64,000 bases of DNA, taken from contig NC_042997.1 in the NCBI RefSeq assembly GCF_006345805.1, positions 114,948,001 through 115,012,000 on the forward strand, given 5' to 3'. Below are positions 24,131 to 29,044 of the stretch, piece after piece. Made by a program: the position numbers and the translations under genes. The stretch is from Octopus sinensis. Lineage: Eukaryota. The notes beneath the pieces were generated by a model. That model saw nothing but the letters and a program-made list of their open reading frames with translations, made no database searches and was not told the origin of the DNA. Position 1 is the first letter of the stretch. The number at the start of each line of letters is the position of its first letter.

Positions 24131-25904
24131 GAAGCAGAAAATGGAGAAGTGCTGATTAACAACAGTTGACTTACATCAATTATTTGTTAATTTAATACAA
24201 ATAGACTTCATCCTATCTAACAGGCCCATTGTGCAACACTTTGGGAATGTGTCTTCTACAAAGCCCCTAGGCCAGCTGAACCTTGAATTTGGTAGGCAGA
24301 AAGTGTGTGAAAGCCTGTCGTGCATGTGTTGGAATGCATGCATGCATAGATGTTTGTGTTGTCTTTCCCTACCACCGCTTGACACCAGTACTGGTAACTT
24401 AACAGTTTGGCAAAAGAGATTGATAGAAGTACTGCGGTTCATTGGTTGATCTAAACCCTTCAGGGTAGTACCCCAGCATGGCCATAGTCCAATGACTGAA
24501 ATTAGTCAAGATTTGTTATTGTGATACATTGTATTTAACATTGAGGTGATTCACTTATAAATTAGAACTTCCTGTATTTATGTTCAAAGCCACTATTATT
24601 GACTTCAAATTTTCACAGAAGGCCAGCAATTTCAGGGAAAGGATTCAGTTGATCGCATCAATGCCATTGCTCAGCTGGTATTTATTCTATTGAAGGCAGT
24701 GAGCTGGTAGAAACGTTAGCACGCCGGGCGAAATGCTTAGTGGTATTTCGTCTGCAGTTACGTTCTGAGTTCAAATTTCACCAAGGTTGACTTTGCCTTT
24801 CATCCTTTCGGGGTCGATTAAATAAGTACCAATTACGCACTGGGGTTAAAGTAATCGACTTAATCCCTTTGTCTGTCCTTGTTTGTCCCCTCTACGTTTA
24901 GCCCTTTGTGGGTAGTTTATTCTATCAACCCTGAGAGGACAAAAGGCTAAGTCGACCTTGGCAGAATTTGAACTCCAGATTGTAGAGATTGATGAAATAC
25001 CACTAAGCATTTTTCCTGGTATGTTAACGATTCTGCCAGCTCGTTGCCTTAATAACAGACAATGTATTGATAAGCTTGTGCCATAGATGGTCTCCAATGA
25101 AATTGGTTCAGCTTTACCATGATGCGGTAGTAATTATAATGATTAATTAAATCTTGTATATTATTGTTTTTTACACAGCAACACTTATCATCCCTCGTTT
25201 GTAGCACCAAACATCCTGCATCTTTTTTTGTTCTTTTTAAACCAGTTTCTATTGTTTCTCCAGCATGGCATATCTCTATTCATTTCAGCTTAGCACCATT
25301 TTCTTCTCTGTGAGTCTTGGTATTGTTAGGTCTGGCCTCAATACTGCTTCCCAAGTCTTTGTAGGCCTGACTTTAACCCGAGGCATATCCCCTGTCAACA
25401 ACCAGTAAGTACTTCATCAAAACGGCATGGTTGCCTCTAGCTGGTTGCTAGATACAGCAGCCAAGTTGCTTGCAAATCATATCTTAATGCTTTTTAATTA
25501 AGGACAGGAAACATTAGTGTAGTCCAATGTCCCCTGAAATAAATGGAATGGTTGGTGCTCTTTTACTTGTTTCAGTCATTTGACTGGAGCACCGCATTTA
25601 GTCGAACAATTCGACCCCAGGAATTATTCTTTGTAAGCCTAGTACTTATTCTATCAGTCTCTTTTGCTGAACCGCTAAGTTACAGGGACATAAACACACC
25701 ACCATCTGTTGCCAAGCGATGTTGGTGGGGACAAACATATTCACACACACACATACATATATACAATGGGCTTCTTTCAGTTTCTGTCGACCAAATCCAC
25801 TCACAAGGCTTTGGTCAGCCTGAGGCTATAGTAGAAGACATTTGCCCAAGGTGCCACGCAGTAGGACTGAACCCGGAATCATGTGGTTGGTAAGCAATCT
25901 ACTT

Positions 25905-27783
25905 TATTTCAATGAATTGGCCATACAGGTCTTACATAGAAGCAACTGCAGGCTGGACAAAACACAAGATGAATGAATGACAAAGCAAATAATGAAATTG
26001 GTGAAGGAAGGCAAGCAATGCCTTGCTGTTTCCCAAAAGCATTGTCCTTTTCTTTTCTAACAAATTGAAGTTATAAACCTCTTACTTTAATTCAATTGGA
26101 CTCAAGATCCTTACAAATGAGGCACTAAGCCTCTTGACTTTTTTCATTATTTTCCACCCCACTGGTGCCCGACTAAGCCTCACTCAAGCATATCGATGGT
26201 GCTAAGTCAGGGTGATTCAGCAGGAAGTGGATGGAATGTGTCTTTGGGGAAGGAGTTCATCACCTTGCACAAATCTGTTCCCCACATGACCTCCACAGCT
26301 ACCTGCGGAGGCCAATCAGGGTCCTTTGTACAGGTTAGAACCCCTCCCCTCCAACCTTCTTTGGTAAACTTTTTCATAAACTCTTGAATTGCCCCTTCCT
26401 TGTGGAATAGGATTACAAATTCCTCCTCCATATAGGGCGAGGCCCGTTTCCACTGTCGGTGACACAATTCCCACTAACAGGGTTTCGGGAAAAGCCGGCA
26501 GTGTATTAGTAACTACCAGCAATGCCTTATTTTTATTTTTCTTCTCTTTTACCATGGGAGGGTGCAGTTCTGTTTTGTCTGGAAGATTTTCCTTCCCTCC
26601 CACAGCCTTAGGATCACTCAGTGGGCAACCTTCTTCCTTTTTTGGCTCTTTTTCGAGGAGGTGGAAGCCTCCTTGACCGTCATCTCTCCCTCTGAATGAG
26701 GAATGGGGAGTGTTTCTGCCACTAACTGCTCCAAGACCCTACTCTGATCCTAGGGACAGTTCTTTTTTATGTGACCTAGTTCCAGTCACAGGTGACACTT
26801 GGGAGGAGGCATCCCTCAAGTATCACCAGATACCTGTTACCAGCCATGGTCAGAAAATCTGGGAAGACCAGATTTCTTGTGGCTGATTGGGTCCACAGGG
26901 TCAAAACAGCTTTTGACCCAACCCAATCAGCCACTGGCAACAACTTTACATTTAGCAGCTTGGATCTGCTGCCACCCAGACCCTGGCGGAGAGTGTCTTC
27001 TAACCACTCGGGCTCCATCACAGGTGGCAACCCACAGACCCAAGCTCTTGTCAACTTTTTCCCACAATATGTGGGAAGAAACAGGATTTCCTGGCCCTCC
27101 AAGGGCTGGTTCACAAACCTGCGAGCCTCCTCAGGGGTGTCTAACAGCAACCACACCATTGCATATTTGGCACCCCTGAAAATAAATTTTATGGTTGGCA
27201 GATACTCTGCCAACTCTTTCTCTATCTCAATTTTCTTGAAGACGGTGATGGTGTCGAGCGACTTTGAGTATGTCCTCAACACCACTGTCCTCTCTTCAGA
27301 GTCTTTCACCCACTCTTTGGGTGGGACAATCTCCCACTCAAACACAGTGTCTAGTTTCTTCGCCATGTTCTTTAGAAGAAAAAAAATTCCAAAGAAAGTC
27401 GGAAAAGGAGACGAAGGAAGAAGGAAAGAAAACAGTTCAAGAACACAGTGACCACAATTTTCCGGCCAACTGGTACTCCAAATAGCAACAGGAACACAGC
27501 TCCACAATTTTTGGAGGTGGGATACACCCCCTAAACAACACACTTCTCACTACTAAGTGAGACAGTAAGCGCAACTACAGGCAGACAAATGCCTGGAATC
27601 CAGTAGAGATTACTTGTTTGAAAAAAAATAAACACAAACAACAAAACCCCACTGAATCCCCAAAAAACAAATGCCTTACCTTGTAGTTGTGCCTCACTAG
27701 TTCAATAATTCATGATGCTGGTGTGCAGCATGATGCACGCCAGCATCATGACTCCTCCCAGTGTGAAGGAAACACTGACACAT
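25905..27783 (-). mobile_element. ORF1/gag-only retroelement (HAL1-like), frameshifted, inserted into a family-A SINE
   Basis: TSD GCAA(T/G)CTACTT at 25894-25904 and 27784-27794 splits the SINE head. AATAAA lies at the 3' end. ORF runs from ATG 27366 (MAKKLDTV) through a decayed zinc knuckle (~26750-26790) to stop 26207. No RT. Confidence 0.78.
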
Positions 27784-28642
27784 GCAAGCTACTTACCACA
27801 CAGCCACTCCTGTGAAACAAAAAGCACCCATGTTGGCACCATGTAAAACACACCCTGTACATTCTGTATAGTAGTTGGCATTAAGGGCATCCTCCGATGC
27901 CAAAACATGACTGGAGCCTGGTGGGCTTGCCAGCATGGAAAACAGATATTAACTGATTGATGTCACAGCTGTAATGTCTTTGAGCATAAAGTCAGCTTGA
28001 CCAAAGAACACGTTATCACCTCTCTGGTTAATTGCCTTTGATATGACATCAAAATAAAAATCAATTGGAAATTGTAGTTAAGATACCTGTGCCGGTGACA
28101 CGTAAAAAGCACCGTCCAAACGTGGCAGATGCCAGCGCTGCCTGACTGGCGTCTGTGTTGGTGACACGTAAAAGCACCAACCGATCGTGGCCGTTTGCCA
28201 GCTTCCTCTGGCCCCTGTGCCGGTGGCACGCAAAAAACCCCCACTACATTCACGGAGTGGTTGGCGTTAGGAAGGGCATCCAGCTGCAGAAACACTGCCA
28301 AATCAGACTGGAGGCTTGTGCAGCCTCCTGGCTTCCCAGACCCCGGTCAAACCGTCCGATCCATGAAAAACGAACGTTAAACGATGATGATGATGATGAT
28401 AATGCAACCACTTTCTCAAGTTGCTCAAGTCATTCATTGTCAGCCCTAAAGAAATTTGTGATACATTACCAATATCTCACAACCATGTAGCATCTCACAT
28501 CTGATACTCCATGCTGAGGAGGAGAAACACTTTGTTGGGAACACAGATAACTCTTTAACCCTTTTTTTATGCTGATCCATCAAAGACTACTCTTGGTTTT
28601 ATGATACACACTTTTCTTGAAGTTATCTAAATTCAAACCATC

Positions 28643-29044
28643 TCTTTTACTTGTTTCAGTCGTTTGACTGTGACCATGCTGGAGCACTGCCTTTAGTCGA
28701 GCAAATCAACCCCAGGACTTATTCTTTGAAGGCCTAGTACTTATTCTATCAGTTTCTTTTGCCGAACCGCTAAGTTACGGGGACATAAACACACCAGCAT
28801 CAGTTGTCAAGCGATGCTGGGGGGACAAATACAGACACGCAAACATATACACACACATACGTACACATATATATATATATATACGATGGGCTTCTTTTAG
28901 TTTCTGTCTACCAAATCCACTCACAAGGCTTTGGTCGGCCCAAGGCTATAGTATAAGACATTTGCTCAAGGTGCCACACAGTGAGACTGAACCCAGAACC
29001 ATGTGGTTGGTAAGCAAGCTACTTACCACACAGCCACTCCTGCG
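28643..29044 (-). mobile_element. tRNA-derived SINE family A, full length. Other copies: ~1415-1975, 3050-3550, 7740-8112, 15935-16225, 38177-38570, 57262-57570
   Basis: Head with A-box-like TGGCTGTGTGGT and B-box GGTTCAGTCCC, a conserved GCCTTGTGAGTGGATTTGGTAGACGGAAAC centre, an internal (TG)/(TA) tract, and a GACTGAAACAAGTAAAAGA tail. Confidence 0.9.

Follow-up and report, generated by a model that had tools for sequence, protein, structure and literature searches.

What kind of retroelement can interrupt a short interspersed nuclear element (SINE), duplicate its target, and bring with it just one open reading frame (ORF), of the ORF1 type? The question is raised by a 64,000-nt stretch of the Octopus sinensis genome (NCBI RefSeq assembly GCF_006345805.1, contig NC_042997.1, positions 114,948,001 to 115,012,000; called the window below, with positions counted from its first nucleotide), in which a SINE head is split by an insert on the minus strand of positions 25905-27783. 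A first-pass annotation had taken this insert for a member of a HAL1-like family that is mobilised in trans. We assign a probability of about 0.8 to the following reading: the insert is a decayed copy of a multi-copy, ~2-kb retroelement that encodes only an ORF1-type protein and neither endonuclease (EN) nor reverse transcriptase (RT). It has an 11-bp target-site duplication (TSD) at a fixed position of the SINE head, and was likely mobilised in trans by an L1/Tx1-like long interspersed nuclear element (LINE) that resides in this genome, inserts at the same position, and has its 3' end in common with the insert.

A decayed ORF1-only element splits a SINE head

Read along the minus strand, the SINE head ..GGAGTGGCTGTGTGGT (27815-27795) is followed by the 11-mer AAGTAGCTTGC (27794-27784), the insert (27783-25905), a second 11-mer, AAGTAGATTGC (25904-25894), and the remainder of the SINE, TTACCAACCACATG.. 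(25893 to ~25558). The features of this arrangement are as follows.

25558..25893, minus strand: SINE 3' part (body and tail) past the insertion point; 70-92% identical, over tail-query positions 1-348, to SINE copies at other loci
25894..25904, minus strand: 3' copy of the 11-bp TSD, AAGTAGATTGC; agrees with the 5' copy at 10/11 positions; the 11-mer is single in uninterrupted SINEs
25905..27783, minus strand: ORF1-only non-autonomous retroelement, 1,879 bp, old and decayed; 65-83% identical to the matches scored
25919..25931, minus strand: 3' stem-loop of the NGCC-TTTAT-GGCN type, here GACC-TGTAT-GGCC with one mismatched pair, lying 15-27 nt from the 3' end; common to the LINE
26285..26437, minus strand: remnant of the C-terminal domain (..EEEFVILFHKEGAIQEF..DPDWPPQVAVE..), its frame shifted away; located by tblastn with an intact 414-aa relative
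26750..26806, minus strand: what is left of the CCHC zinc knuckle, out of frame with the N-terminal part and interrupted by two in-frame stops; located by tblastn with an intact relative (intact relatives read CHRCLESGHIKKNC)
26812..27366, minus strand: N-terminal part of the ORF (two RRM-like domains), a single open frame from the ATG at 27366-27364; 71% amino acid identity to an intact young copy
27367..27783, minus strand: 5' leader, 417 nt, lacking the first ~9 nt present in most old copies, with an extended hairpin at 27710-27751; defined by comparison with old copies
27784..27794, minus strand: 5' copy of the 11-bp TSD, AAGTAGCTTGC; read from the sequence
27795..27815, minus strand: SINE head upstream of the insertion point, ..GGAGTGGCTGTGTGGT; the same head is present at 18/20 young copies

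An uninterrupted copy of the same SINE lies 0.85 kb away (window ~28642-29042). Here the 11-mer is single, and the head and tail queries overlap by exactly those 11 nt. The 11-bp TSD splitting a SINE head, as the first-pass annotation had described it, therefore held up, and so did its account of the interior as a 5' leader, one frameshifted ORF, and a 3' end at AATAAA with no room for EN or RT. From its ATG the frame stays open for ~187 codons, to ~26810, and is then broken by at least three frameshifts and by two in-frame stops inside the CCHC knuckle (CHL*LELGHIKKNCP*, asterisks marking stops). The insert ends in ..CATTGAAATA, directly followed by the AAG of the duplicated target, and it has no poly(A) tail. 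The AATAAA hexamer straddles this 3' junction, taking its last two bases from the start of the duplicated target. A Pfam search of the insert ORFs of at least 50 aa gave no match to EN or RT. The recurrence of identical junctions in other copies (below) indicates that the arrangement in the window did not arise by chance.

An Rfam search of window 25400-28300 for ribozymes or other known RNAs (E<=1) returned two chance-level microRNA-like matches only (E ~0.9). An inverted repeat with ~25 bp per arm lies within the N-terminal coding region (window 26874-26939; el108 892-938 in young copies). By self-inverted BLAST it is kept in old and young copies alike, and its own Rfam match is again microRNA-like and at chance level (E=0.89).

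The insert belongs to a multi-copy family without ORF2

A DNA search of the octopus genome with a 1,901-bp query yielded 2,234 first-look candidates, 40 of which were scored to give 80 matches, all at 65-83% identity. A search at the protein level, with a better-preserved copy's C-terminal half as query, yielded 9,097 candidates, and among the 150 that were scored many had 94-98% amino acid identity and open frames of 416-477 aa. These totals, like those for the LINE searches below (232 and 20,078), are first-look counts of which only subsets were scored. Such young, near-identical copies with open frames indicate that the family, judged by its sequences, is also young elsewhere in the genome and that the window holds merely an old member.

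When six natural full-length copies were mapped onto 60 fetched loci (L001-L060), 15 spans of 1,608-2,225 bp reached both ends. Young ORF1-only copies measure 2,200-2,250 bp, so that the family ranges from 1.6 to 2.25 kb without an ORF2, and minis that retain just the two ends also occur (L041, 255 bp; L048, 583 bp). A Pfam search of the 60 loci detected neither EN nor RT in the sequence between the two SINE halves. Among 115 ORFs of at least 100 aa outside the matched parts of these loci, one matches RVT_1, located beyond the SINE tail, and none matches an endonuclease. Nor was any remnant of ORF2 found in the 300-nt 3' untranslated region (UTR) of young copies. Several copies that appeared to be 5'-truncated by BLAST, such as L046, are just diverged, and we therefore made no use of truncation counts.

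The 5' leader varies within the family. Two young copies, L107 and L108, are 97.7% identical from nt ~363 onwards and unrelated over their first 320-360 nt. Leader modules are thus, as far as sequence comparison can tell, exchanged among young subfamilies, one type of leader being similar to the 5' end found in older copies of the LINE. In older subfamilies (window 27710-27751, L002, L005, L012, L025, and others) the leader has two hairpins near its 5' end followed by a conserved ATGAATTATTGAAC. A hand-drawn structure with these two hairpins is 81% paired and shows weak covariation, its score being reached by 6 of 500 shuffles, with an expanded loop in the window copy; RNAalifold predicted no pairs in the 5' leader. 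A splice-donor-like AGGTAAG ~100 nt from the 5' end is conserved in ORF1-only subfamilies (window ~27675-27685, L108, L107) and in the LINE at L103; between element positions ~292 and 400, many of the old copies show differences or a gap. An intron in the 5' leader is possible on this pattern. Contigs from four sequencing runs, whose label as RNA is a guess, cover a young copy piecewise and have no bearing on expression.

The ORF encodes a conserved ORF1-type protein

The intact protein of young copies has 414 aa. Pfam zf-CCHC was matched by all nine aligned members (best E=2e-5) and was the only Pfam family matched; the window ORF and older copies gave nothing beyond a weak zinc knuckle, and RRM or ZCCHC3-RBD families gave no match even at E<=10. 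A tblastn search with ORF1-only protein P0002 against the LINE loci found ORF1 of the resident LINE (E=3.6e-21, 27% identity over 194 aa), and the two proteins align collinearly through the CCHC knuckle.

An AlphaFold2 model built on nine natural sequences shows the order beta-alpha-beta-beta-alpha-beta at residues 20-100, with a predicted local distance difference test (pLDDT) score of 72-85, and repeats this order at residues 106-181 (pLDDT 50-61). In a Foldseek search of the PDB, all 13 listed matches at E<=1e-3 were tandem-RRM proteins (among them SFPQ/NONO, Hrp1, raver1, and hnRNP A1). The alignments show the protein to be homologous to LINE ORF1. Its predicted domains are two of RRM-like fold, a CCHC knuckle, and one at the C terminus.

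To ask whether the protein had been conserved, we calculated the ratio of nonsynonymous to synonymous substitutions (dN/dS) by the method of Nei and Gojobori for seven intact ORFs from different subfamilies. In 20 of 21 pairs the ratio was 0.13-0.46, with dS up to ~1-2; the remaining value, 1.14, came from one near-identical pair. The N-terminal domains gave 0.11-0.27. Because decay after insertion would drive the ratio to 1, values well below 1 argue, despite the choice of intact ORFs, that the protein mattered for propagation of the family and that the ORF has evolved under purifying selection. The first-pass annotation had thus anticipated the family (many copies with the same two ends, none of them running on into ORF2), RRM-like domains plus CCHC in its protein, and dN/dS as a test of the ORF, and each of these expectations was borne out.

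In many young copies (L125, L126, L127) the C-terminal domain is out of frame past an A-rich lysine run (KGKKKKKRKK, encoded by an A-run), and dozens of the 150 scored protein matches begin near query residue 96 and carry one TGA. The out-of-frame domain is either a slippage hot spot or the mark of a subfamily that spreads without the domain in frame.

The sole match in the protein database was an identical octopus protein, 'uncharacterized protein LOC115225585 [Octopus sinensis]', with 100% identity to the ORF of one copy (L030:1557-2429); a database search for longer proteins gave no match. LOC115225585 is a transposon ORF annotated as a gene. A protein language-model search placed ZCCHC3-type RNA-binding proteins among the neighbours, with a score of 0.91.

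Insertion is at one position of the SINE head

Nearly all copies are inserted between ..GTGTGGT and AAG(A/T)AGCTTGC.. of the SINE, itself a very common repeat in the octopus genome, and always in SINE orientation. Among 36 distinct older copies, the 3' end ..ATGAAATA abuts AAG(A/T)AGCTTGC.. at the same base in 25, while three have only 15-19 target-like nt on this side and eight have neither SINE nor target-like bases. Young copies show the 3' junction in 18 of 19 loci, and in 20 further young loci picked by rank, each junction (5' and 3') was present in 18.

The duplication could have been longer than the 11 bp that are common to both sides. In 16 of 18 young copies the 4 nt past the 5' 11-mer read TAAC; at the same place on the 3' side TAAC and TTAC-type sequences occur in nine copies each, and in 7 of the 16 young copies that have both sides the two disagree. 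Well-preserved uninterrupted SINE heads are likewise divided (TAAC 6, TTAC 6). The 3' flank therefore samples the target population, and the 4 nt on the 5' side travel with the element, from which we deduced that the true duplication is 11 bp. A duplication of 15-16 bp is ruled out by the differing 4 nt of the young copies. The GAAG and GTAG variants of the target go with element subfamilies, but this cannot be separated from age, as T is found in 14 of the 15 uninterrupted SINE heads that are well preserved.

The SINE head has A/B box-like motifs by eye only. ARAGORN found no transfer RNA (tRNA) in it, and Rfam gave no match at E<=5. Octopus SINEs have been named tRNA-Core and tRNA-Deu in the available text of one report (PMC8967140).

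A 5'-truncated copy at L033:1296-1770, beginning at element position ~1523, lies deeper in a SINE, behind ..GCGTGGTAC and followed by an inverted SINE. The bases ..GCGTGGTAC resemble the canonical ..GTGTGGTAAG context, and this copy may be an off-target insertion at a look-alike site.

A LINE occupies the same site and shares the 3' end

Behind one mini copy, the target-like bases continue into the 5' end of a LINE instead of the SINE. This LINE family has 232 first-look candidates, 40 of them scored, and target-like sequence lies directly upstream of 5 of the 6 copies that start at LINE position 1-4. Complete LINE copies were found between SINE head and tail at L085 (5,048 bp) and at L102 and L105 (~5.45 kb). 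At L103 the order is SINE head, LINE ORF1 (488 aa, open), LINE ORF2 (1,137 aa, open), a nearly intact ORF1-only copy, and SINE tail. Across L085, L102, L103, and L105, the LINE is flanked by the SINE head on one side and by the SINE tail or a tandem element on the other. Tandems occur in both orders, LINE then ORF1-only copy (L103) and ORF1-only mini then LINE (L064/L061), and such stacks are common because each insertion rebuilds the target.

ORF1 of the L103 LINE matches zf-CCHC (E=2e-5); an RRM is predicted just from homology to the ORF1-only protein, whose model has RRM-like topology, and Pfam gave no RRM match. ORF2 matches Exo_endo_phos (APE endonuclease; 3e-11), RVT_1 (5e-27), and zf-RVT (7e-9), and its closest solved relative is human L1 ORF2p (E=2.5e-65), with R2 at 6e-20. 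By these domains the 5.4-kb LINE, the candidate autonomous partner, is L1/Tx1-like.

The two families also have their last ~45 nt in common, and within them, 15-28 nt from the end, a TTTAT-like loop closed by a 4-bp stem. In 30 sequences from both families, 95% of the cells of this stem-loop are paired, and the closing pair is UA in 16, GC in 9, and AU in 5, with none broken. None of 500 shuffles reached its covariation score, and slid controls were 14-46% paired. Since the sequences are related, the covariation reflects a few events, not 14.

Could the ORF1-only family be real but mobilised by another LINE, such as a closer, perhaps extinct or unsampled parent, or by several Tx1-like lineages? 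The ORF1 proteins of the two families are only ~27% identical, the elements are alike in nucleotide sequence at the 3' end only, and an RT search, which mixes related LINE groups, gave 20,078 first-look candidates with matches at 70-85% identity and many open frames of 1,030-1,181 aa, some of these groups (L104) not being in the SINE. However, among the loci examined no RT-bearing element other than the LINE group identified here was seen at this site. This group has the 3' stem-loop and terminal motif in common with the ORF1-only family, is young, has intact ORFs, and stands in tandem with young ORF1-only copies. We consider another mobilising LINE unlikely, and it is the strongest of the competing explanations. 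The low identity of the ORF1 proteins and the lack of nucleotide similarity outside the 3' end do mean that the LINE is a partner by shared signals, not a recent parent.

The related LINE at L104 (G000:C17:42783000-42792999) has ~67% nucleotide identity, with ORF1 (481 aa) and ORF2 (1,181 aa) both open. This LINE and a further copy are arranged head to tail, and the repeat that harbours them is not the SINE but a different one; it may represent a sister lineage with another target.

Off-target copies point to an RNA that starts in the SINE head

Two copies lie off target. At L041 a 15-bp duplication (14/15 positions identical) surrounds a mini element preceded by 23 nt of SINE head, and at L043 a 10-bp duplication (9/10) surrounds 19 nt of SINE head plus a full-length element. 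Neither unit has a SINE tail, each stopping at ..GAAATA, and the two sites start with AAG. Since these copies carry 19-23 nt of SINE head, we infer that copying uses an RNA whose 5' end lies within the SINE head at the donor locus, which would also explain the element-borne bases at the 5' junction. Their ends at ..GAAATA without a SINE tail suggest that reverse transcription starts at the 3' end of the element itself.

The same copies bear on the idea that one ancestral SINE gained an insert and that the composite SINE-insert-SINE unit was then amplified via the SINE tail, the site and the internal TSD simply being inherited. Such a history would account for the SINE orientation of all copies, for the junction-adjacent SINE variants (GAAG/TTCC versus GTAG/TTAC) that go with element subfamilies, and for the 4 nt that travel with the element beside the 5' junction. 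It is largely refuted by the off-target copies, which have duplications of their own and lack the SINE tail by which the unit would have moved; by unrelated inserts that use this very base, namely minis, ORF1-only subfamilies that differ in their 5' leaders, and the 5.4-kb LINE; and by tandem stacks within one SINE. The 3' flank, moreover, samples the SINE population (9 TAAC and 9 TTAC-type of 18) much as uninterrupted SINEs do (6 versus 6). We regard a composite unit as very improbable.

Still less probable is that the 2-kb units are dead by-products of independent internal LINE deletions without propagation of their own. Internal-deletion derivatives do exist (L041, L048, L057, and LINE deletions in L065 and L087), but the same structure recurs in thousands of candidates, subfamilies at 94-98% amino acid identity have intact 414-aa ORFs with the low dN/dS given above over dS up to ~1-2, and the 300-nt 3' UTR is free of ORF2 remnants. 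Just as remote is a host gene family encoding a domesticated ORF1-like RNA-binding protein, to which the annotation of LOC115225585 and the ZCCHC3-type neighbours (0.91) might point. There are thousands of copies, they duplicate their target and keep to one fixed position of the SINE, their 3' end is also that of the LINE, and old ones are decayed; a single syntenic, conserved locus containing introns but lacking repeat structure was not seen.

Several points weigh against an ORF1-only family mobilised by the resident LINE at one SINE position. Eight of the 36 old copies do not abut the SINE, and two of these are explained as off-target insertions, leaving six that are not. The AlphaFold2 model is poor overall (mean pLDDT 46.9) and of low confidence outside residues 20-180, and Pfam detects nothing but the zinc knuckle. 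Choosing copies with intact ORFs for the dN/dS analysis introduced a bias. The ORF1 proteins of LINE and ORF1-only family have diverged to ~27% identity, and outside the last ~45 nt young copies of the two have no nucleotide similarity detectable by BLASTN; the search for a closer parent LINE was non-exhaustive. The Tx1 clade label of the partner is provisional. Finally, mobilisation in trans by this LINE is inferred from the shared site, the shared 3' end, and co-location.

Other sequences near the insert and in the fetched loci

Adjoining the split SINE, window 28060-28350 contains ..GCCGGTGACACGTAAAA(A)GCACC.. units in repeated form, and L012 has a repeat of this kind as well. Long antisense frames accompany it, and it is a further abundant repeat in the genome. 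At L062:7180-8670, on the minus strand, an uninterrupted open frame of 497 aa gives a full-length match to Tmemb_161AB (E=6e-176) and is an intronless gene or a retrocopy.

A proposed mechanism

Co-transcription of the target with joining at the 5' end has been proposed for other site-specific LINEs (available text of PMC4494074). In the octopus, the element RNA would run from the donor SINE head to ..GAAATA, perhaps plus a few target bases, and would be coated by the element's own ORF1-type protein. The ORF2 protein of the LINE would recognise and bind the shared 3' stem-loop of this RNA, nick the bottom strand of the SINE at 5'-..CTT^ACC..-3' (between the complements of GGT and AAG), and prime reverse transcription there. 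A second nick would fall on the top strand, 11 nt downstream, and the SINE-head bases at the 5' end of the RNA would help to join the complementary DNA to the target head. The site may be set by the endonuclease alone or by base pairing of the RNA ends. As every insertion would rebuild the target, head-to-tail stacking would be possible.

A more speculative extension, which we think doubtful, is a two-part homing system. Here the selected ORF1-type protein and the RNA, beginning within the SINE head and ending next to target-like bases, would together steer both families to one SINE nucleotide, so that the site would be guided partly by the RNA or by the ORF1 protein (ORF1p) and not by the endonuclease alone; HeT-A may be compared, in what it does for TART.

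Relation to known systems

At the Drosophila telomeres, HeT-A is a gag-only non-LTR element without RT that propagates at a fixed kind of site together with its RT-bearing relative TART, and the elements form head-to-tail arrays. Unlike HeT-A, which belongs to the Jockey clade and is found at chromosome ends, the octopus family uses an interspersed SINE, and its probable partner is L1-like. R2 SIDEs and other internally deleted, non-autonomous derivatives keep both ends of a site-specific LINE, and their RNA carries target sequence from the donor locus. SIDEs are short and non-coding, whereas the octopus family keeps a full ORF1 under selection; Rfam found no ribozyme in the window element.

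HAL1 is described, in the available text, as a non-autonomous L1 derivative that encodes ORF1p only (PMC5753468). Like HAL1 of mammals, the octopus family is ORF1-only, without ORF2, present in many copies, and long propagated. In contrast to HAL1, its ORF1 is of the RRM plus CCHC kind and not Transposase_22, it ends in ..GAAATA without an A-run or poly(A), it is strictly target-specific, its ORF is under measurable purifying selection, and its host is a cephalopod. An RRM plus CCHC layout is termed 'Type I' ORF1p and linked with Tx1-type relatives of L1 in the portion of PMC5203782 available to us. LINEs of the Tx1 clade prefer one sequence, often another transposon, with the examples in the available part of PMC4494074 being Tx1L in Tx1D, Keno in U2 genes, and Tx1-Mar in the crocodilian Mariner-N4_AMi. 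The partner LINE resembles these in its APE endonuclease, RT, zf-RVT, CCHC-bearing ORF1, and fixed target in a mobile element; the differences are that this target is a SINE head and that the window element itself lacks ORF2.

One octopus genome has L1-Tx1 families listed as recently active (PMC13282606, Table 1), such families also count among the ancient repeats of coleoids (PMC8967140), and an octopus LINE study reports an RTE element only (PMC9115989), in each case in the portions of these papers at hand. No SINE target and no ORF1-only form is mentioned in those portions of the literature on octopus repeats, a comparison that leaves aside supplements, repeat libraries, Repbase, and Dfam. 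By its sequences, the octopus family appears to be a HAL1-like, target-specific variant that is ORF1-only and paired with an L1/Tx1-like LINE at one SINE nucleotide. The first-pass annotation had not noted that insertion is strictly specific for one SINE position, that the partner LINE uses this site too, or that the family is still young elsewhere in the genome.

Significance

The octopus genome thus carries three parasitic layers: a SINE, a LINE for which the SINE is the landing pad, and an ORF1-only element that probably makes use of the LINE's enzyme. This matters for annotation of octopus genomes, since SINEs are split by such inserts, which also form stacked arrays and are annotated as protein-coding genes. 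The off-target copies provide a sequence-level handle on where the RNA starts. The family is also a rare natural case in which an ORF1-type protein has long been kept by selection (dS up to ~1-2) without its ORF2, and it makes testable both the role of ORF1p for its own RNA and the strictness of cis-preference.

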